IMG/VR virus record: IMGVR_UViG_3300035670_000158
Span: 51,251-71,250 of that record
Strand: one strand, 5' to 3'
Length of the DNA: 20,000 nucleotides
From: an uncultured virus (IMG/VR IMGVR_UViG_3300035670_000158)
Lineage: Duplodnaviria; Heunggongvirae; Uroviricota; Caudoviricetes
A model generated the notes under the pieces. That model did no database searches. It saw only the letters and a list, made by a program, of their open reading frames with translations, and was not told the DNA's origin. Each line of letters starts with the position of its first letter. The stretch's first letter is position 1. Position numbers and translations under genes: made by a program. Shown here one piece after another: positions 5,850 to 19,780 of this stretch.

Positions 5850-5876
5850 ATAAATACCTCCATCTTGGAGGTATTT
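5849..5876 (+). promoter_or_regulatory. T4-type late promoter overlapping an RBS-sequestering hairpin
   Basis: AATAAATA at 5849-5856; 11-bp stem AAATACCTCCA (5852-5862)/TGGAGGTATTT (5866-5876) buries GGAGGT of the gene at 5881. Confidence 0.7.
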
Positions 5877-5880
5877 TATT

Positions 5881-6228
5881 ATGCGCCCACAATCAGCAAA
5901 AGCAAAAGGTCGCCGCCTTCAGCAGTGGGTAAGAGATAAACTGGTAGAGTGTCTTCATATTCATCCAGAAGACATTGAGTCTCGTAGCATGGGAGCAGGC
6001 GGTGAAGACCTTATTATGGCTAGAGCAGCCAGGTCAAAGTTTCCCCATAGTATTGAATGTAAGAATGTTGAAAAACTAAATATCTGGGATGCCTATGAGC
6101 AAGCATCTGCCAACTGTGGTGATTACGAACCTATCGTTGTGATGAAAAAGAACGGAAAGAAACCATTGGTTGTAGTGGACGCAGAGTATTACATTCAACT
6201 ATTCGGAGACAAAGATGGCACGAATTGA
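5881..6228 (+). CDS. PD-(D/E)XK nuclease, Holliday-junction resolvase-like
   Basis: SAKAKGRRLQ...GEDL...IECKN motif order typical of Hjc-like phage nucleases. Confidence 0.75.
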   Translation: MRPQSAKAKGRRLQQWVRDKLVECLHIHPEDIESRSMGAGGEDLIMARAARSKFPHSIECKNVEKLNIWDAYEQASANCGDYEPIVVMKKNGKKPLVVVDAEYYIQLFGDKDGTN

Positions 6229-6919
6229 TCTTCATAACTTTTTTAAACATTACGACGAAAACAATCCAAAGCATGTAGAAGCTGTTAGATATTTTGAGGA
6301 TGCTCTTAATAAAAAAGCACCAGAAGAAATGGAAGATTCTTCTGGGTGGGTTGTGACATATAGAAGTCAACCAAACAAACCAAAATCAAATATTCTTGAT
6401 GTGCCTTTCTTTCCACAGACAGACAATTATAGAGATGCTAATCGCACCTGTAATTCATCTGCCTGTGCCATGGTGTTAGAATACTTCAAACCAGGCACAC
6501 TCAAAGGAGCAAAAGGCGACGACGCTTATGTTCAAAAAGTCTTTTCAATCGGGGATACCACAGATCACTTGGTTCAAACTCGTGCTCTTGCGTCTTATGG
6601 AATTAAGTCAAGTTTCAGTTATTCCCTTACTTTTGCTGATCTTGATAGAGAGCTTGCCGCTGGCAGACCTGTTGTTATTGGCATTCTTCATAGGGGCACT
6701 CTATCTAATCCGACAGGAGGACATATGTTAGTTGTCATTGGCAAAACGCCATCAGGTGATTACATTGTTAACGACCCCTATGGTAGTCTCAATGACGGTT
6801 ACACCAGTGCCGTAAGCAACGGTAAGGGTGCAGTGTATAAGCGTAGTGTGTTGGCACGTAGATGGTGCCCAGCTGGCAATGATGGATGGGGTAGAATCTT
6901 TGATGCAAAAAAGGCGTAA
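6215..6919 (+). CDS. C39-like cysteine peptidase (putative cell-wall hydrolase)
   Basis: VPFFPQTDN...RTCNSSACAM (Cys), GGHMLVVIG (His), VNDPYG (Asp). Confidence 0.85.
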   Translation: MARIDLHNFFKHYDENNPKHVEAVRYFEDALNKKAPEEMEDSSGWVVTYRSQPNKPKSNILDVPFFPQTDNYRDANRTCNSSACAMVLEYFKPGTLKGAKGDDAYVQKVFSIGDTTDHLVQTRALASYGIKSSFSYSLTFADLDRELAAGRPVVIGILHRGTLSNPTGGHMLVVIGKTPSGDYIVNDPYGSLNDGYTSAVSNGKGAVYKRSVLARRWCPAGNDGWGRIFDAKKA

Positions 6920-6959
6920 GCTCCACTCTTGACGGTATTCCCGTAAAGGGACTGGAGCT
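6907..6959 (+). other. putative programmed -1 ribosomal frameshift signal
   Basis: In-frame slippery heptamer A_AAA_AAG at 6907-6913, 5-nt spacer, then stem-loop 6919-6959. Confidence 0.8.
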
Positions 6960-7395
6960 GATCAAAGAGTTTGAAGGATGCCATCTTTCAGCATACCCAG
7001 ACCCATTTACAGGAAATCTTCCCATCACCATAGGTTGGGGAAGCACCAGAGACTTCAACGGCAAACCATTCAAACTTGGTGATAAGATTTCACAAAAGGT
7101 TGCTGATGATTTGCTCATCAGTCAAATCAAGCGGGAGTTTATTCCTGCCCTGTCTAAGATACCTTACTGGAGTGAAATGAATGACAATCAACGAGGAGCA
7201 CTTTTATCATTTGCTTACAATCTCGGTGCTCGCTTTTACAATTCAAGCAATTTCAATACTATTTCTCGCAATTTGCGTGAGAAAAATTGGGCAGCAATCC
7301 CAAAAACATTAGAGATGTATCGCAATCCTGGTAGCAGTGTAGAGGCAGGATTGCTCAGAAGAAGAAAGGCAGAGGGTAAACTTTGGATAAGTTAA
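6913..7395 (+). CDS. GH24 (phage lysozyme) domain in the -1 frame, probably fused to the C39 peptidase
   Basis: GLELIKEFEGCHLSAYPDPFTGNLPITIGWG (E-x8-D...T), QRGALLSFAYNLG, GLLRRRKAEGKLW; in-frame TGA at 6901-6903 and no ATG/GTG/TTG before the catalytic Glu. Confidence 0.85.
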   Translation, partial: GVSSTLDGIPVKGLELIKEFEGCHLSAYPDPFTGNLPITIGWGSTRDFNGKPFKLGDKISQKVADDLLISQIKREFIPALSKIPYWSEMNDNQRGALLSFAYNLGARFYNSSNFNTISRNLREKNWAAIPKTLEMYRNPGSSVEAGLLRRRKAEGKLWIS

Positions 7396-7637
7396 TCATC
7401 CATCTTTGCTTTTAGTCCAAGTAGAGCAGTAAACAAAGTAAATAACGCATTATATCCTCTACTCTCAGACTCTTTGCAGTCTAAGGGTGGAGGATTTACT
7501 AATCCACCTAAAGCATCTGCTCTTTCCATGGAACCTGGAACCATAAAATTGCAGTTTGCAAAAGTAATACCAACGTATCCTAGTGTTCCTATTACAAGAG
7601 TGACAATGAGTTTATCAAGTAGCTTTAGATTTTTCAT
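7392..7637 (-). CDS. small two-TM membrane protein (holin-like candidate)
   Basis: 81 aa, two hydrophobic segments; minus-strand late promoter AATAAATA at 7666-7659. Confidence 0.65.
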   Translation of the reverse strand: MKNLKLLDKLIVTLVIGTLGYVGITFANCNFMVPGSMERADALGGLVNPPPLDCKESESRGYNALFTLFTALLGLKAKMDD

Positions 7638-7677
7638 CTTGCTTCTTGCTGACAGGTCTATTTATTTGGAGGGGGTC

Positions 7678-7707
7678 TTGACAAACCCCTAAATACTCAC
7701 TTATAAT
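7678..7707 (+). promoter_or_regulatory. sigma70-type promoter with embedded late-promoter-like CTAAATA
   Basis: TTGACA 7678-7683, 18 nt, TATAAT 7702-7707; CTAAATA 7689-7695. Confidence 0.7.
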
Positions 7708-7737
7708 GAATTTTCGTCATTAGTCCTTGACGTGTCT

Positions 7738-7803
7738 TAGAGCCGTGGGATCTGCCCTCTGAGAAGAGGGAAGTGCGCTTTTCCTATACGGATGTAGAGT
7801 TCA
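7738..7803 (+). ncRNA. candidate structured 5' leader of rlpA
   Basis: CCCTCT-GAGA-AGAGGG GNRA hairpin (7755-7770) enclosed by CCGTGGGA (7743-7750)/TCCT-at-ACGG (7782-7791). Confidence 0.4.
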
Positions 7804-7813
7804 ATCGAATTTA

Positions 7814-8176
7814 ATGCTTTTCAAATCACTTTCAATTCTCGCCATTGCCGCTGCAGGACTAGCACCCCTTCAGGCAAAGGCAGCGAGCGGATGTTCCCTC
7901 GCATCACATTATGGAGTCGGTGATGGATATCATGGGCAGACAACTGCAAATGGTGAAAGATATAACGCTTATGGAAAATCAGTAGCACATAAATGGCTTC
8001 CTTTTGGAACCAGATTGAGAGTTACAAATCAACGAAATGGTAAGTCAGTAATTGTGCGTGTAAATGATCGCGGTCCCTACGTTGGTGGGAGAGACCTTGA
8101 CTTGTCTTATGGTGCGTTCTCTTCTATTGCTCACCCAGGTCAAGGCGTTACTAGCGTCTGTTATTCAAGGGTCTAA
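7814..8176 (+). CDS. rlpA: RlpA-like lytic transglycosylase (DPBB domain) with signal peptide
   Basis: ASHYG...TANGERY...AHKWLPFGT...VRVNDRGPY...DLDLS; hydrophobic N-terminus ending AKA. Confidence 0.9.
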   Translation: MLFKSLSILAIAAAGLAPLQAKAASGCSLASHYGVGDGYHGQTTANGERYNAYGKSVAHKWLPFGTRLRVTNQRNGKSVIVRVNDRGPYVGGRDLDLSYGAFSSIAHPGQGVTSVCYSRV

Positions 8177-8889: not shown

Positions 8890-9243
8890 ATGCCATATAA
8901 AAACAAAGAGGACTATAAAAACTGGGAAAAGAGATATCGTAACGAATATTATCAAAGACCAGAAACAAAACAAAGATTGTCAGAGCAATCTAAGTTGCGT
9001 AGAGAACGAAATAAAAGTTTTGTTCTAGATAAAATGATTCCTTGTATTGTATGTGGTGAGAGTGACCCTATTGTTATTGATTTTCACCATTTAGATGAAT
9101 CTCAAAAAGATAAAGGAATTTCTCAAATGATGCAAAGTAATTATTCTTTGCAAAAAATACAAGAAGAACTTGACAAATGTGTTTGTTTATGTTCTAATTG
9201 TCATAGGAGAGTTCACGCAGGAACTCTTACTTTGCGGGTATAG
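8890..9243 (+). CDS. HNH endonuclease (putative free-standing homing endonuclease)
   Basis: CIVCG...DFHHLD...CVCLCSNCHRRVH; upstream hairpin 8849-8883 with AATAAATA in the loop region. Confidence 0.88.
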   Translation: MPYKNKEDYKNWEKRYRNEYYQRPETKQRLSEQSKLRRERNKSFVLDKMIPCIVCGESDPIVIDFHHLDESQKDKGISQMMQSNYSLQKIQEELDKCVCLCSNCHRRVHAGTLTLRV

Positions 9244-10671: not shown

Positions 10672-11061
10672 ATGCCATACAAGGATATAAAAAAGCAAAG
10701 AGAAGCGCAGCGACTCTGGGCTGAAAAACAATCTAGTGAGTTTAAAAAGGTAAAATACCAACGAGAACAAAACCACAAAAAGTTGATGGTTGAAAAACTA
10801 AATCAACTAAAATTAGAAAAAGGTTGTTGCGAATTGTGTGGTGAGTATCATCCACCATGTTGTTTTGATTTTCATCATTTGGACAAAACAACTAAATCAA
10901 AAGAAGTATCTCAGTTAGCTGCAAAAGGATACAAATGGGACACAATCTTGACTGAAGTTGAGAAGTGTGTTATGCTATGTGCTCCATGTCATCGTAAGAT
11001 ACATGCGGGACTGCTAACAATCTTGGAGAGTCAATCCGATTGGCGACGGAACCTGTCTTGA
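10672..11061 (+). CDS. HNH endonuclease (putative free-standing homing endonuclease)
   Basis: CELCG...DFHHLD...CVMLCAPCHRKIH; similar to 8890..9243; hairpin 10633-10660 and TAAATA motifs upstream. Confidence 0.88.
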   Translation: MPYKDIKKQREAQRLWAEKQSSEFKKVKYQREQNHKKLMVEKLNQLKLEKGCCELCGEYHPPCCFDFHHLDKTTKSKEVSQLAAKGYKWDTILTEVEKCVMLCAPCHRKIHAGLLTILESQSDWRRNLS

Positions 11062-12671: not shown

Positions 12672-13571
12672 ATGCAAAAAGTACATTGTATTGTAATGAC
12701 GCGCAATGATGATTTGATCATTGAGCATTGGATCAAAAAGCACATCAACGTCTTTGATACTATCTCAGTTGTTGATGGATCTGATGGTGACTTTACAGAG
12801 AATCTCTGTAAACAATACGATATCCTCTATACCAAAGACCCTGCCGATAAGCCGTTTCACGAACAGTATCTTCGTGAGGCGGCTTTTAATAATTTGAAAC
12901 CACACATTGAACTTGGGGAGTGGGTAGGATGTTTCATGGCAGACGAGTGGGTATACCATGATCCACGTAAAGTAGTTGAACTTGTGGAACCATGGGCAAA
13001 TGTGATTTCATGGAATCAACTTAATGTTCTTCCTCACCCATCGGAAAGAGAAGAATATGATAAAAGTATCAAAGAAAATAATTATAACCCAACTGAAGTA
13101 TTCAAACATTATTGGTTCCGAGATAATACCAAGACATGTTTTGAACCAAGAATGTTCAAGTACACTGGCGATGAATATTGGACTCATCAAATTCCTAGTG
13201 AAAATCCAGTAGCAGGAAGAATTGAACCAGTATCACATAATACAAAATCTAATATTATTCCTACATACTTTCACTATAAAGTTTTTGATCTTGATCCTGG
13301 TAAGTATAAGAATGATGGATTTGCTCACTTTGAAAAGAGTAATCTAAACACTGGTATTGGTTATGGCAAAGGTCAAAGTGTAAGGACCATTGAAAATATT
13401 GATGATCTTTTCTTTGATGAAGACAATATCTATTGTAATATGGGAACAGCAGATGATGGCACTGATTACGTTCATGGATATTGTGCTAGAATTGGTGATA
13501 ATGGGTTAATTCCAGAAGGTACAAATTACAACCGATTAGGTAACAGCGAAGACGTGAGATTAATTCTATGA
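12672..13571 (+). CDS. GT-A fold glycosyltransferase (GT2-like)
   Basis: [18 protein letters not shown]...VVDGSDG...MADEW (DxD-like). Confidence 0.7.
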
Positions 13572-14638
13572 AACGTGCATTGATTACTGGAGTCACAGGA
13601 CAAGATGGATCTTATCTTGCCGAACTCCTTCTCTCTATGGGGTATGAAGTTCATGGTATCAAGAGAAGAAGTTCTTCTTTCAATACCGATCGTGTCAATC
13701 ATATCTTCAACAATAATAAAAACTTCACCATGCATTATGGTGATCTAACTGACTCCACAAACCTCATCCGAATCATTCAGATGGTTCAACCTGATGAGAT
13801 TTATAATCTTGGTGCTCAAAGTCATGTGAAAGTTTCATTTGAAACCCCAGAGTACACTGCAAACAGTGATGCTCTGGGGACTCTTCGTATTCTTGAAGCA
13901 ATTCGTATTCTTGGATTAGGAGAAAAGATTCGCTTCTATCAAGCATCTACTTCAGAAATGTTTGGTTTAGTTCAGGAAAATCCTCAGAAAGAAACAACTC
14001 CATTTTATCCTCGTTCACCATATGGTGTTGCTAAACTGTATGCTCATTGGATTACTAAGAACTACCGTGAGTCTTATGGAATATATGCTTGTTCTGGGAT
14101 TCTGTTTAATCACGAGTCACCTCGTCGTGGAGAAACATTTGTAACTCGTAAGATTACTCGTGACCTTGCCCGTGTAAAACTTGGATTGCTCAAAACTTTG
14201 AAACTGGGTAATCTAGATGCTAAACGGGATTGGGGACATGCTAAAGATTATGTTCGTGCAATGTGGTTGATGCTCCAACAAGATCATCCAGATGATTATG
14301 TAATTTCTACCATGCAACAAATTACTGTTCGTGAATTTTGTGAACGAACTGCTAAAATTCTGGGCATGAATATTGAATGGAGAGGAGAAGGTTTGGATGA
14401 AATTGGTGTGGATACAGTAACTGGAAATACCGTAATTACAGTTAGTCCAAGATACTTTCGTGATGCAGAAGTTGAAACACTTCTTGGAGATTCCACCAAA
14501 GCACGTGAAGAACTTGGATGGAAACCTGAGATCACTGTTGATCAAATGATAGAAGAGATGGTCAAAAAGGATCTTGAATTTGCTCTAAGAGATGAACATC
14601 TTGCCGCAGGAGGATTCAGTAAGTATGCATACGAATGA
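13568..14638 (+). CDS. gmd: GDP-mannose 4,6-dehydratase
   Basis: [56 protein letters not shown]. Confidence 0.97.
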
Positions 14639-15554
14639 TAAAATTTATATTGCAGGACACAATGGACTTGTTGGATCTGCAATCGTAAGAGGGTTGAGGC
14701 AACAAGGATATAAAAATCTTATCCTAAAAACAAGAAAAGAACTAGATCTTACAGATGAAAATGCGGTAAAGATTTTCTTTAGAACAGAAAGACCAGACTA
14801 TGTTTTCTTAGCAGCTGCAAAGTGTGGTGGAATTAAAGATAACATTGATCATCCAGTTCAATTTCTTGAAGATAACATAAAGATTCAAAACAACATCATT
14901 CATTATGCTCATACTGTAAATGTAAAAAAACTAATGTTCTTGGGGTCGGCGTGCATCTATCCTAAAGACTGTCCGCAACCAATTAAAGAAGAATATCTTC
15001 TTTCTGGATATCTTGAACCAACGAATGAAACATATTCTCTAGCAAAAATTGCTGGCATCAAATTGTGTCAGGCATACAGAAAACAATATGGGTGTAATTT
15101 TATTTCGGTTCAACCTTCAAATGTTTATGGTCCTAGAGATAACTATGATCCAGAATCAAGTCACGTGATCGCTGGTTTGATTCATAGATTTCATGATGCA
15201 AAAATTAAGAATCAAAAAGAAGTTGTATGTTGGGGATCTGGTTCTGCAAGGAGAGAATTTATCTTTGTTGAAGATCTTGCAGATGCTCTTATCTTTTTGA
15301 TGAAATCATATAATAATAATGAAATTATCAATGTGGGAGTTGGGAAAGATATTTCCATCAAAGAATTAGTAGCACACATTGTAGATGTGATAGAATATAA
15401 GGGAAAAATATCTTGGGATTTGAGTAAACCTGAAGGTATGAAACAACGTCTTTTAGATACAACTAAACTAAGAGAACTTGGTTGGCAACCAAAAACATCA
15501 TTAGATGAAGGTCTTCGTCTTGCATATGAATATTTTAAGTTGGAGGTAAAGTAA
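14625..15554 (+). CDS. fcl: GDP-L-fucose synthase family epimerase/reductase (Fcl/WcaG; possibly ColC)
   Basis: [48 protein letters not shown]. Confidence 0.9.
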
Positions 15555-16720
15555 TGTATTGGCCCTTGATGGAAGACACGATTACATTGAGTGATCGTAT
15601 GAAAATGGCAACATTTTTGTTGACAAGTAGCAGACTCACTAATGGTCCAAAGGTTCGTGAGTTTGAATCTGCCTGGTCAAATTGGTTGGGAGTAAAGCAT
15701 TCACTGTATGTTTCTAGTGGCAGCACTGCTAACTCTCTATTGATTGCTGCTGTAAAGGAAAAATATGATTTGAAAGATGGTGATAAAGTTCTCGTTCCTG
15801 CAACTACTTGGATGACTAATGTTGCTCCAGTGTTTCAGGCAGGACTACAACCAATCTTTTGTGATATTAACTTGGGGAACTTTTCTTTTGATGAAAAAGA
15901 ACTAGAGTATGTTGCGACTCAGTATCCAGATATCAAGGTTGTTTTTATTACACACTTGATTGGTCTGTCTTCCAACGTTGAAAAAGTTCGTGAGATCTTT
16001 CCAAATGCAATCATTTTAGAAGACGTTTGCGAATCTCATGGAGTATGTGGACCTGATGGAGAAAAGAGAGGAATAAAATCTACTGGTTCTACTTTTAGTT
16101 TCTATTTTGGTCATCATATGACTACTATTGAAGGTGGAGTTGTATGCACCAATGATACTGAATTGTATGAACTGATGCGTCTCAAGCGTAGTCATGGTAT
16201 GGCAAGAGAAGCTTCTCCTCATATCTTTAAGAAGTATGCAGAACAAAATCCAGAAATTGATAAAATGTTTTTGTTTGTGACTGATGGATATAACTTCCGT
16301 AATCATGAAGTTTGTGCTGTGCTTGGTTTATCTCAATTGAAGAGACTTGATAGAAATATTGAAATTCGTAGAAGTAATTACAAAAAATTTCACACTGGTT
16401 TAGTGCATACTTCGGGATACAAACTTCCCCACTATCAAAAAGGTAATAGTAGTTTCTCTTTCCCAGTTATTGCAAATGATGAAAGCACTATCAAGGTGCT
16501 GAAAAAAGTTTTGACTAATAATCAAATTGAGTATCGTCCAATTATCAGTGGCAATCTTTTGAGGCATCCAGCATTTAAAAAATATGAACTTTGCACACAA
16601 AGAGAAAATCCAAATGTAGAAATTCTTCATCGCAATGGTCTTTATGTTGGTAACAGTCAATTTGTTACTCATAAAAAAGTAGATCGTCTTCTTCAGATTC
16701 TTGAACAAGTATCGTCATGA
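15554..16720 (+). CDS. DegT/DnrJ-family PLP enzyme, ColD-like GDP-4-keto-6-deoxymannose 3-dehydratase
   Basis: SSGSTAN, EDVCESHG, FSFYFGHHMTTIEGG (His at the usual PLP-Lys position), GYNFR. Confidence 0.8.
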   Translation: MYWPLMEDTITLSDRMKMATFLLTSSRLTNGPKVREFESAWSNWLGVKHSLYVSSGSTANSLLIAAVKEKYDLKDGDKVLVPATTWMTNVAPVFQAGLQPIFCDINLGNFSFDEKELEYVATQYPDIKVVFITHLIGLSSNVEKVREIFPNAIILEDVCESHGVCGPDGEKRGIKSTGSTFSFYFGHHMTTIEGGVVCTNDTELYELMRLKRSHGMAREASPHIFKKYAEQNPEIDKMFLFVTDGYNFRNHEVCAVLGLSQLKRLDRNIEIRRSNYKKFHTGLVHTSGYKLPHYQKGNSSFSFPVIANDESTIKVLKKVLTNNQIEYRPIISGNLLRHPAFKKYELCTQRENPNVEILHRNGLYVGNSQFVTHKKVDRLLQILEQVSS

Positions 16721-17130
16721 AAAAAGTTCCCACAGTTTATCTTGCAGGACCAATTGAGGGATGTACAGATGAAGAAATTTTTATTTGGAGAAATGAAGCA
16801 AAAGATCTATTATTTGATGGGGTAAGGGGAATTTCACCTACCAGAATGGAACTATTAGATCCATCTGCTGTAATCACACAAAATTACATGGACATCAAAA
16901 CATGTGATGTTGTTCTTGCATATCTTCCAAAATGTATTAGTGATAGGAGATGTTCCTATGGAACTATTTGTGAAGTTGCCTGGGCATATTCGCACCAAAC
17001 TCCAGTTGTCATAGTTTCTGATGATCCGTACATTCATGAGCATCCTGTTCTAAAAATGATCGGAGTTCATTTTGATTATCTAGAAGATGCTACAACATAC
17101 ATAAATCAATTGCTTGGTGATTATGTTTGA
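16717..17130 (+). CDS. nucleoside 2-deoxyribosyltransferase / nucleotide N-glycosidase-like protein
   Basis: VYLAGPI...DIKTCDVVLAYL...SYGTICEVAWA. Confidence 0.75.
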   Translation: MKKVPTVYLAGPIEGCTDEEIFIWRNEAKDLLFDGVRGISPTRMELLDPSAVITQNYMDIKTCDVVLAYLPKCISDRRCSYGTICEVAWAYSHQTPVVIVSDDPYIHEHPVLKMIGVHFDYLEDATTYINQLLGDYV

Positions 17131-17890
17131 CGTAAAAACAACTGGCACTCTTTCATCTGAGGGTCAGTATAAAAAGAAGGTTCATATTGCATATGATTCT
17201 TTAGTTTATGATCCTAATTGCGATGTGAATGTGATGGTTCAGATTGAACCACCTTCTATCATTAATATTGTTGATGATATTCGCAATCGTGCCGAAAATT
17301 TTGATCTTATTCTGACTTGGAATGAGGATCTCCTTGATCTCCCCAATGCCCAAAAGTTTTTATTTGGAACGTGTTGGATTGACTTTGATACTTTTGAATT
17401 GAAGAAAAGGGATGTTGTATCTTTTATAACAAGTGATAAGGGATGGGCACCAGGACATCAACTTCGCCAACAAATCTGGGCAGGTCTTGAGGATGCTGAA
17501 GATCTAAATGGAATGTCAATCATTAAACATAAGTCACCACCGCGAGTGCCGAACAAGAACTTCCTCTTTGAGGAAGCTAAATATCATATAGTTGTAGAAA
17601 ACGAACAACGAAACAATTGGATAACAGAAAAACTTATTGATTGTTTCGCTTCTAGAACTATTCCAATTTACTGGGGTGCTCCAAACATCGGAGAATATTT
17701 TGATACCGATGGTATGATTATTTTCAATACTATTGAAGAACTCAAGGATATACTTGACAATATATCTCAAAGATTTTATTTTGATCATACAGAAATTATT
17801 ACTGAAAATTATGAAAGATCCAAGCAATATTGGGACTTTCATGCTAGAATTAGAAAAACTATTGAAGATTTCGTAGAAAACAATGACTAA
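17123..17890 (+). CDS. GT10-like (alpha-1,3-fucosyltransferase-type) glycosyltransferase
   Basis: KYHIVVEN...WITEKLIDCF...IPIYWGAPNI motif. Confidence 0.8.
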   Translation: MFDVKTTGTLSSEGQYKKKVHIAYDSLVYDPNCDVNVMVQIEPPSIINIVDDIRNRAENFDLILTWNEDLLDLPNAQKFLFGTCWIDFDTFELKKRDVVSFITSDKGWAPGHQLRQQIWAGLEDAEDLNGMSIIKHKSPPRVPNKNFLFEEAKYHIVVENEQRNNWITEKLIDCFASRTIPIYWGAPNIGEYFDTDGMIIFNTIEELKDILDNISQRFYFDHTEIITENYERSKQYWDFHARIRKTIEDFVENND

Positions 17891-18920
17891 AACTGCACTT
17901 GTTTGTGGCGCTGGTGGATTCATCGGTAGTCACATGGTCCGCCGACTGAAAGAAGAAGGATATTGGGTACGTGGTGTTGATATCAAATATCCAGAATATT
18001 CTCAATCATCTGCCGATGAATTTATTCTGGGCAATCTCACTGATCAAAAGTTCGTAGAAAGAGTAGTTCGTTACTCTGGAGAACAAGGTAATTTTTATCA
18101 TCAAGTGCCTGAAAATTTTCAACAACCATTTGATGAGATTTACCAGTATGCTGCTGACATGGGCGGCGCTGGTTATATCTTTAGTGGTGAAAATGATGCA
18201 GAGGTAATGTATAATTCTGCCATGATCAATCTCAATATTTTGAGAGCACAATTTGAACTTAATAATAGAAAAGAAACTAATAAAACTAAAATATTCTACT
18301 CTTCATCTGCTTGCATGTACCCTGAATATGCTCAGATGGATGTGGATAATCCTGGACTGAAAGAGTCTGATGCATATCCTGCTGGTCCTGACTCTGAGTA
18401 TGGTTGGGAGAAACTGTTCTCTGAGCGTCTGTATCTGACGTTCAATCGTAACCATGGCATTCCTGTTAGGATTGCTCGCTTCCATAACATCTACGGTCCT
18501 GATAGCACCTGGGAAGGTGGTAAGGAGAAGTCTCCTGCTGCTATGTGCCGTAAGGTTGCATATGCTGAGGATGGTGGCACCATTGAAGTATGGGGTGATG
18601 GTGAGCAGACACGTTCATTCCTTTATATTGATGAGTGTGTTGAAGCAACCCGTCGTCTTATGGAGTCCGATTTCCTTGGTCCTGTGAACATTGGTTCTGA
18701 AGAAATGGTTAGTATCAATCGCCTGGTAGAAACTGTTGCTAAGGTGGCAGGCAAGACAATCAACATTGAACACGTTGATGGTCCTTTGGGTGTGCGTGGT
18801 CGTAACTCAAACAACGATCTCATTCGTGAAAAACTTCAGTGGGATTATGGCATGACTCTGGAAGAAGGTATTGCTAAAACTTACGCATGGATCTCTGAAC
18901 AAATTGCTGCTAAGAAATGA
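17883..18920 (+). CDS. NAD-dependent epimerase, GDP-mannose 3',5'-epimerase-like
   Basis: GAGGFIGSH, AADMGGAGYI, SSSACMYP, YGWEK, RFHNIYGP, GGKEKSPAAMCRK, GVRGRNS. Confidence 0.85.
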   Translation: MTKTALVCGAGGFIGSHMVRRLKEEGYWVRGVDIKYPEYSQSSADEFILGNLTDQKFVERVVRYSGEQGNFYHQVPENFQQPFDEIYQYAADMGGAGYIFSGENDAEVMYNSAMINLNILRAQFELNNRKETNKTKIFYSSSACMYPEYAQMDVDNPGLKESDAYPAGPDSEYGWEKLFSERLYLTFNRNHGIPVRIARFHNIYGPDSTWEGGKEKSPAAMCRKVAYAEDGGTIEVWGDGEQTRSFLYIDECVEATRRLMESDFLGPVNIGSEEMVSINRLVETVAKVAGKTINIEHVDGPLGVRGRNSNNDLIREKLQWDYGMTLEEGIAKTYAWISEQIAAKK

Positions 18921-19780
18921 AAACTGTAACTATTCTTGGATCAAGTGGGCAGATCGGTGCCTACTTGACCACTTATCTTCGTGACAAAGGTTACAAGGTA
19001 TATGAGTTTGATATTGTCAGATCACCTCTTGAAGACCTGACGTATTTTCCTAACCAGATTCTTGAAAAAAAGATTCAGGATAGTGACTTTGTGTTCTTCT
19101 TGGCATTTGATGTGGGTGGTTCACGTTATCTTGCCAAGTACCAGCACACATTTGATTTCATCAATAACAATACTAGGTTGATGGCACAAACTTTTAGTCT
19201 TCTTGAAAAATATAAAAGACCATTTGTTTTTGCATCATCCCAGATGAGTAACATGAGTTACTCTCCCTATGGTGTACTCAAGCGTGTAGGAGAACTTTAT
19301 ACCAAGTCACTCAAAGGATTGACCGTAAAGTTCTGGAACGTATACGGCATTGAGCATGACGAAGAGAAATCTCATGTCATCACAGATTTCATTCGTAAAG
19401 GATTTGAAGTTGAGAGCGGTGGAACTGTTGAAATGTTAACTGATGGCACAGAGGAACGTCAGTTCTTGTATGCTGAGGATTGTTGTGAGGCACTAGAAGA
19501 AGTGATGAATTCATTCAGTGATTTCAAAGTTGATGATCCTCTTCACATCACATCTTTTAGGACTACAACCATCAAAGAGATTGCTGGTATTATTACTGGT
19601 CTCTTTAATATTGCAGGAAAGCAAGTCATCTTCAAACCAGCAGAGGCAAAGGATACTGTACAACAGAATAAAAAGAATGAGGCAGACACTTACATTACTG
19701 GTTGGTGGATGCCGAAAACAAACATTCAAGATGGAATTCAAAAAGTTTTCAATGACATGAAAAGGGAGTATACAAAATGA
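18917..19780 (+). CDS. NAD-dependent sugar epimerase/dehydratase (extended SDR)
   Basis: GSSGQIG, FASS, YGVLK, NVYG, RQFLYAED. Confidence 0.85.
   Translation: MKTVTILGSSGQIGAYLTTYLRDKGYKVYEFDIVRSPLEDLTYFPNQILEKKIQDSDFVFFLAFDVGGSRYLAKYQHTFDFINNNTRLMAQTFSLLEKYKRPFVFASSQMSNMSYSPYGVLKRVGELYTKSLKGLTVKFWNVYGIEHDEEKSHVITDFIRKGFEVESGGTVEMLTDGTEERQFLYAEDCCEALEEVMNSFSDFKVDDPLHITSFRTTTIKEIAGIITGLFNIAGKQVIFKPAEAKDTVQQNKKNEADTYITGWWMPKTNIQDGIQKVFNDMKREYTK

Follow-up and report, generated by a model that had tools for sequence, protein, structure and literature searches.

A predicted programmed -1 frameshift joining a C39 peptidase to a lysozyme without its own start codon in T4-like cyanophages

A single cyanophage locus very probably yields two proteins by programmed -1 ribosomal frameshifting, a 234-aa peptidase and a 393-aa fusion of this peptidase with a lysozyme, as judged from the sequence of the locus and from its conservation among related phages. 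The locus lies in a stretch of 20,000 nucleotides, referred to here as the window, which is the end portion of a 71-kb virus contig and whose source is a T4-like cyanophage. If the prediction is right, cell-wall enzymes would join the structural and chaperone proteins as phage products of productive -1 frameshifting, and T4-like phages would be added to those that use it.

The peptidase-lysozyme locus and its predicted recoding signal

The features of the locus, in window coordinates, are as follows.

5851-5874, + strand: T4-type late promoter motif TAAATA (5851-5856) with an overlapping hairpin (5854-5874)
5881-6228, + strand: RusA-like Holliday junction resolvase (PHROG 244, E 2.6e-22)
6215-6919, + strand: zero-frame reading frame of 234 aa, N-terminal module (N module) plus papain-like C39 peptidase, the predicted short product
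6215-6382, + strand: the N module, helical, about 55 aa, of no named family (sequence alignment; structure model with pLDDT 88)
6888-6892, + strand: Shine-Dalgarno (SD)-like GGGGT, 14 nt upstream of the heptamer
6901-6903, + strand: TGA closing the -1 frame
6907-6913, + strand: slippery heptamer A_AAA_AAG
6913-7395, + strand: GH24 lysozyme in the -1 frame (profile match and catalytic residues), 160 aa, predicted C-terminal part of the 393-aa fusion
6917-6919, + strand: zero-frame stop TAA, one codon past the heptamer
6919-6959, + strand: stem-loop and putative stimulator, 5 nt after the heptamer, arms AGCTCCA (6919-6925) and TGGAGCT (6953-6959)

The 234-aa reading frame matches Pfam Peptidase_C39_2 (PF13529; E 7e-13, 49.8 bits against a cut-off of 24), and its triad, Cys79 at 6449, His170 at 6722 and Asp187 at 6773, is invariant in 68 sequences. 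No sequence relative of the peptidase was found among solved structures, and its best fold match is 3erv, a C39-like peptidase (E 1.7e-5). The domain probably cuts peptidoglycan, because the N module accompanies several kinds of wall hydrolase; the C39-like N5 domain of mycobacteriophage endolysins is a second basis for this putative substrate (PMC3314691).

The N module gave no Pfam match at cut-off, no usable Atlas match and no fold match (Foldseek E at least 5.6; best VIA Z 2.9), a result that speaks neither for a new fold nor for the absence of one. It has 228 representatives at E<=0.001. Of 57 carriers scanned, which were the longer ones of 150 listed, 37 combine the module with a GH24, C39, M15, glucosaminidase or muramidase domain, 17 have no family and three are unrelated repeats; the module sometimes stands in tandem. 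It is thus probably a lysin accessory domain, since these linkages are with wall-hydrolase domains. Its likeness to the 48-aa extension of 204-aa coupled lysozymes is weak (hhalign probability 18%, E 0.0014; hmmsearch best E 7.6e-4, on 8 sequences). In three further loci (L188-L190) it precedes what appears by eye to be a GH19 domain.

The -1 frame matches Pfam Phage_lysozyme (PF00959) over the whole profile (1-125 of 125, E 4.8e-23, 82.3 bits against a cut-off of 22.3) and is the sole GH24 match in the 71-kb contig. Its catalytic codons, Glu at 6973, Asp at 7000 and Thr at 7027, align with those of the solved GH24 lysozymes 9kbq and 7m5i, and we take their roles to be those known from the T4 lysozyme family. 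An earlier note on this DNA had described a full lysozyme with no ATG, GTG or TTG before the catalytic Glu, and indeed none of the three precedes it in the window's -1 frame. The TTG at 7111 chosen by the ORF caller lies 46 codons past the Glu and so omits the active site, as the same note stated; the product lengths of 234 and 393 aa given there are correct. The near-canonical codons before the Glu are ATT 6937, which sits in the hairpin loop, CTG 6952, CTG 6958 and ATC 6961.

The peptidase frame ends GCA AAA AAG GCG TAA, which places A_AAA_AAG in the slippery phase, and entry into the -1 frame must fall in 6904-6919 because the TGA at 6901-6903 closes that frame upstream. The stem-loop that begins five nucleotides after the heptamer has a folding energy of -20.6 kcal/mol (z -3.33), a value reached by 3 of 200 shuffled sequences, and its 3' arm codes for the first lysozyme helix. 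Heptamer, closing TGA and stem-loop had all been pointed out in the earlier note, and all three are borne out by the sequence. The heptamer signal of a single genome is modest, for AAAAAAG alone is common in the window (10 copies); its conservation across related loci, treated below, raises the junction signal far above chance.

The SD-like GGGGT, which had been proposed as an upstream element of the same signal, is present, and its distance of 14 nt is the upper limit of the 9-14 nt reported for internal SD stimulators (PMC5009743). As independent evidence for a stimulator we rejected it: it is encoded by Trp-Gly codons found in all architecture classes, and pairing with the anti-SD is no stronger in frameshift loci than in other loci (-6.6 versus -6.9 kcal/mol, p 0.40). 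It therefore adds no support, because the conserved Trp-Gly codons force GGGGT in every class. With this element excepted, the description as a dnaX/IS3-type -1 signal holds, with a heptamer of an efficient class and a conserved 3' structure. After Gly-Trp-Gly (region 6888-6895), Arg is encoded by AGA in 69 of the 90 frameshift loci versus 21 of 69 others, and by AGG in 6 versus 29; this bias may reflect kinship or a tuning of the SD-like pairing.

Conservation of the junction among related phages

We classified 280 loci, 279 and the window, which gave 192 distinct entries; 19 of these without a C39 C-terminus and 9 truncated ones were left out of the main count. An in-phase heptamer stands near the peptidase end in all 90 distinct junctions with an adjacent ATG-less -1 lysozyme and in 5 of 64 controls overall, counts that overstate independence because the loci are kin. 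Among the controls it occurs in 4 of 19 junctions whose lysozyme has its own ATG, in 1 of 28 loci with the peptidase alone, and in none of 12 separate arrangements and none of 5 reverse (lysozyme-peptidase) fusions. The cultured phages S-PM2 and S-CAM7 have the same junction layout as the window. The heptamer is A_AAA_AAG in 87 of the 90 junctions, T_TTT_TTT in two (the S-CAM7 type) and C_CCA_AAG in one; the first belongs to the class listed as most efficient in E. coli, and the other two are on the same list of efficient sites (PMC4066793).

On codon evidence, this conservation is one of nucleotides. The base preceding the Lys codons is A in 87/87 (codons GCA, GTA, GAA and ACA), against a third-position A in those genes of 37% for Ala and 29% for Val, and the junction Lys-Lys is always AAA AAG, which accounts for 5 of 78 Lys-Lys pairs elsewhere in the same genes. 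The zero-frame stop follows the heptamer directly in 74 of 90 junctions, after one codon in 14 and after two codons in 2, and in 84 junctions the -1 frame has a stop no more than 30 nt ahead of the end of the heptamer.

Downstream of the heptamer, a segment of 55 nt folds at z<-2 in 77 of 90 frameshift junctions, and in 37 of 46 after the hairpin segment was clustered at 80% identity. The same threshold is passed by internal control windows of the same loci in 10/88 and 3/90 cases, by 2/28 peptidase-alone loci and by 3/19 own-ATG loci. Stem positions -19, -22 and -25 each show four to six pair types (at -22, A-U 34, U-A 29, G-C 7 and C-G 5, with a few loci one codon out of register). A locus's own arms pair at -15.7 kcal/mol versus -8.8 for swapped arms, although in only 11 of 39 cases does no foreign 5' arm pair better than the locus's own. 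By these pairing patterns, the hairpin is kept as a structure by differing sequences, with compensating changes in the stem. The alignment of related phages proposed earlier as a check thus came out in favour of the frameshift, with heptamer, frame offset and compensatory stem changes all retained.

The same offset bears on whether the frame break is an assembly indel in what is truly an in-frame fusion, or the mark of a lysozyme pseudogene. Such fusions do exist, PHROG 3617 covers both halves, and the break falls at a homopolymer. Against an error stand the recurrence of the offset in 90 junctions and in the isolates S-PM2 and S-CAM7, and the contigs of four sequencing runs, which have no inserted or missing letters, a check that the earlier note had called for. 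Those from the P2 and P3 studies run across the junction without a gap and differ by 50 and 37 substitutions; the other two are identical to the window, come from one study and are possibly its source data, and thus carry little weight, and contigs in general drop rare variants. Against decay, no stop interrupts the lysozyme frame, and the catalytic residues are all in place. Indel and decay are thus largely refuted, and we give them next to no credence. The in-frame peptidase-lysozyme fusions, found at 10 junctions including ACG-2014f, show that such a fused protein truly occurs, and are no sign of an error in the window.

An altered mRNA could give the same fusion, if RNA polymerase added an A (or U) within the run. 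T. thermophilus dnaX reaches the same outcome in this way (PMC5009743), and the S-CAM7-type loci have eight consecutive T. In the window type, however, the run is six A ending in a G that is invariant in 87/87, C_CCA_AAG and the G_GGA_AAG sites described next contain no homopolymer run, and a conserved 3' hairpin at ribosome spacing suits translation, so that transcriptional slippage appears highly improbable.

A second type of junction involves the N module only. Here a bare N-module reading frame of 72-80 aa with a CxxC (CPHC) tail ends in G_GGA_AAG plus a stop, and the lysozyme follows in the -1 frame. All 20 distinct junctions of this kind, out of 80 loci, carry G_GGA_AAG (they fall in L282-L313, for instance L290 and L313, together with L130, L134, L137, L139, L140, L142 and L144). 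The use of another partner with another efficient heptamer gives strong support to selection acting on -1 slipping into the cyanophage lysozyme. A hairpin with z<-2 is found in only 8 of the 20, and two of the 20 have no ATG before the catalytic Glu, the other 18 having ATGs 9-12 codons before it.

Such starts bring up the possibility that ribosomes terminate at TAA 6917, open the hairpin and begin anew at ATT 6937, CTG 6952 or CTG 6958, giving a stand-alone lysozyme. Stand-alone lysozymes of 151-154 aa exist. Of the 19 own-ATG junctions, 15 lack the heptamer, and in 13 of these the two genes overlap by ATGA, which indicates that translational coupling is in use at related loci; and the MS2 lysis gene, by the titles cited in PMC5009743, was first attributed to frameshifting and later to termination-activated restart. 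The earlier note named an independent non-canonical start as one finding that would speak against the frameshift. No conserved alternative start was found across the 90 junctions, which favours frameshifting, although 54 of them have ATT, ATC, ATA, GTG or TTG 12 codons before the Glu, where the window has ATT 6937. This Ile/Val-Pro position is kept also in in-frame fusions and in ATG-started lysozymes, and is therefore a protein constraint. When only codons 8 or more before the Glu are counted, ATG, GTG or TTG is present in 32 of 90 junctions, in varying places, and absent from 58, and 14 of 90 contain none of ATG, GTG, TTG, CTG and ATH; CTG occurs in 6 of 90. Restart, moreover, leaves unexplained the invariant heptamer and its exchange for other heptamers. 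As the sole route to the lysozyme we regard it as unlikely, while as a side route it may run alongside frameshifting, because 4 loci with the heptamer and the 18 of 20 G_GGA_AAG loci carry their own ATGs.

In S-SRM01 (L162) and in L116, L011, L014 and L073, A_AAA_AAG occurs together with an ATGA or GTGA overlap, and these loci are possible intermediates between frameshifting and translational coupling. One peptidase-alone locus (L207) ends in A_AAA_AAA plus a stop with no lysozyme behind it, which looks like a relic left by lysozyme loss. In a quick tree of 96 rows, which is poorly resolved (11 of 93 branches starred), the frameshift class is spread among other architectures and the two T_TTT_TTT rows fall outside a starred A_AAA_AAG clade of 25 rows. 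A separate origin of the T_TTT_TTT site did not hold up as a claim, neither constraint being rejected (p-AU 0.52 and 0.26, with 37 hand-picked rows of the 96).

Proposed mechanism and known systems

In the frameshift mechanism that we propose, a late transcript would begin at the TAAATA of 5851-5856, and ribosomes would read through the N module and the C39 peptidase until they pause at A_AAA_AAG on the hairpin five nucleotides downstream. Both lysine tRNAs could then re-pair one base back, the single tRNA-Lys(UUU) pairing weakly with AAG. Ribosomes that do not slip would end one codon later and release the 234-aa peptidase, while slipped ribosomes would read on from 6913, cross a short linker, enter the lysozyme and produce the 393-aa N module-peptidase-muramidase. 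The rate of shifting would set the amount of muramidase relative to the N-module product, because no conserved route other than frameshifting leads to an intact lysozyme. The slipping itself, its rate and a role in lysis are what we infer from sequence, as are the "set ratio" of products in the earlier note and the label lysin.

A_AAA_AAG is prone to shifting where AAA and AAG are both read by a single tRNA-Lys (PMC5009743). Among cultured phages, the peptidase has its closest relatives in S-CREM1 (81%) and S-PM2 (79%), both of which infect Synechococcus, and that of the lysozyme is in the Synechococcus phage S-PM2 (82%); the probable host of the window phage is taken from these relatives. Among the 121 genomes of the family called alpha-cyanobacterial by CsoS2, 119 have a tRNA-Lys(UUU) pattern and 9 a CUU pattern, two of these 9 matches not looking like tRNAs. 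In a phylum-wide scan 137 of 201 genomes showed the CUU pattern, which at first seemed adverse; among 39 genomes re-examined, 4 of 5 CsoS2-positive ones had UUU only, and the count within the family decided the matter. No tRNA-Lys is among the seven tRNAs of the phage contig, which is incomplete. The likely hosts, as inferred from the relatives, thus appear mostly to carry one tRNA-Lys, as A_AAA_AAG favours.

The closest known arrangement seems to be the reversed form of dnaX. E. coli dnaX tau/gamma likewise has A_AAA_AAG, a downstream stem-loop and a single tRNA-Lys, and in the "reversed" arrangement it is the shift that yields the long product, with the zero-frame stop right after the site, as in the window (PMC5009743). 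The window differs in encoding a phage cell-wall enzyme and not a polymerase subunit, in that the shift adds a second catalytic domain, and in that a 5' SD stimulator is without support at its locus. OrfA-OrfAB of IS3/IS911 shares X_XXA_AAG with a 3' structure, a short N-terminal product and a long catalytic fusion (PMC4066793), whereas the window locus is no mobile element, has what is predicted as a simple hairpin, and would give a short product with its own catalytic triad. The lambda G/GT tail chaperone and the extended capsid or tail proteins of T3/T7, A2 and A118 are dsDNA phage systems with two co-N-terminal products at a fixed ratio, which for the window is an expectation, and with a signal conserved despite sequence drift, as here; their products are virion-assembly or structural proteins, unlike those of the window, and G-T shifting is absent from T4 (PMC5009743).

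Two lysin forms from one locus are known by another route. Ms6 LysA, CTP1L, Lys170, LysIME-EF1 and LysP7951 are each made as a longer and a shorter polypeptide from a single locus; the two have a common C-terminus and arise by an in-frame internal start, in phages with Gram-positive hosts, and several of these endolysins assemble at fixed ratios of 1:3, 2:2 or 1:5 (PMC9430671, PMC3314691). The predicted window products share their N-terminus, lie in different frames and would require a frameshift, so that the window lysin may act like these heteromers without being one of them. We put forward, as a tentative idea that is possible and hardly probable, that the N module binds the wall or assembles with itself, and that frameshifting is a stoichiometry device for a multi-subunit lysin. 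An excess of N module, with the peptidase in the window or bare in the G_GGA_AAG loci, would then carry lysozyme on a minority of subunits. If true, this would be an N-terminal mirror image of the CTP1L/Lys170-type heteromers, reached by recoding at two junctions and perhaps repeatedly, and a heteromeric lysin in phages that infect Gram-negative cyanobacteria, hosts whose lysis is still little understood.

The same three domains also occur in single ORFs with one product, as an in-frame N-C39-GH24 of the same order in ACG-2014f (405 versus 393 aa) and as an in-frame GH24-N-C39 in S-CREM1. Together the loci form a natural series of in-frame fusion, reverse fusion, coupled genes and frameshifting at two junctions with four heptamers, which bears on why two lysin forms persist, and they bring to light an unnamed module common to cyanophage wall hydrolases. 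The lysin annotation in GenBank is shortened, to 72 aa in S-PM2 and 90 aa in S-CAM7, and the probable main muramidase is missing from the proteomes of both phages because these annotations omit the active site. S-PM2 and its host are both cultured, so that direct testing is possible.

The mechanism is a classical one, in a gene class for which we found no verified precedent. The lysin case of Shearman et al. 1994 reportedly involves an unusual start codon and another gene inside the first, with no demonstrated -1 shift. The PRFect paper counts lysins among genes with a known frameshift and cites that work, PMID 7944354 (PMC10885494). The phage frameshifts reviewed in PMC5009743 are those of tail chaperones, capsid and tail proteins, cro and the MS2 replicase; the part of this review that was covered names no lysin, and "lysozyme", "endolysin" and "cyanophage" do not occur in it. 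Likewise "frameshift" does not occur in the main text of PMC9430671 and PMC3314691. No report of a frameshifted cyanophage lysin was found in the main-text literature searched, which took in few subscription journals.

Genome setting and neighbouring features

The gene order of the window is primase, nrdA, nrdB, RusA-like resolvase and then the peptidase-lysozyme locus. The 3' end of the resolvase gene overlaps the peptidase start, and a resolvase adjoins 32 of the 90 frameshift junctions. Upstream of it stands TAAATA (5851-5856), which we take, from T4 biology, to be a late-promoter motif and which is present in 44 of 45 distinct upstream segments of related loci; it is the probable start of a late transcript spanning resolvase, peptidase and lysozyme. 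The overlapping hairpin (5854-5874) pairs the SD of the resolvase gene (5867-5871). In the 45 upstream segments the SD-like word is paired in 22, and no such word was found in 23. In read-through RNA this hairpin would mask the resolvase SD, much as T4 keeps late genes silent on early transcripts, for which gene e and gene 49 are the precedents. A T-rich run follows the motif and hairpin (region 5851-5881).

Downstream, one more reading frame converges on the lysozyme gene.

7392-7637, - strand: 81-aa reading frame with two hydrophobic stretches (no Pfam match; PHROG only at E 0.073)

Its product is at most holin-like, a holin or spanin candidate by appearance, and no holin was identified in the window by Pfam or PHROG profile searches. 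Small reverse reading frames occupy the equivalent place in S-PM2 and S-SRM01, a likeness of position only, and a TAAATA-like motif lies near 7665, by the 81-aa frame. A perfect 12/12 sigma-70 consensus at 7678-7707 overlaps a TAAATA motif and precedes an RlpA-like lytic transglycosylase (DPBB_1, E 6.8e-22; region 7678-8176), which is the third wall enzyme of the cluster. The seven tRNA genes of the contig (contig positions 59899-62757) follow, and two HNH-like endonuclease reading frames, recognized by eye from CxxC ... DFHH, lie in the tRNA region at 8890-9243 and 10672-11061. Further on, 13568-19780 has the appearance of a nucleotide-sugar enzyme cluster, with GDP-mannose dehydratase-, fucose synthase-, aminotransferase- and epimerase-like genes, of a type common in some cyanophage islands.
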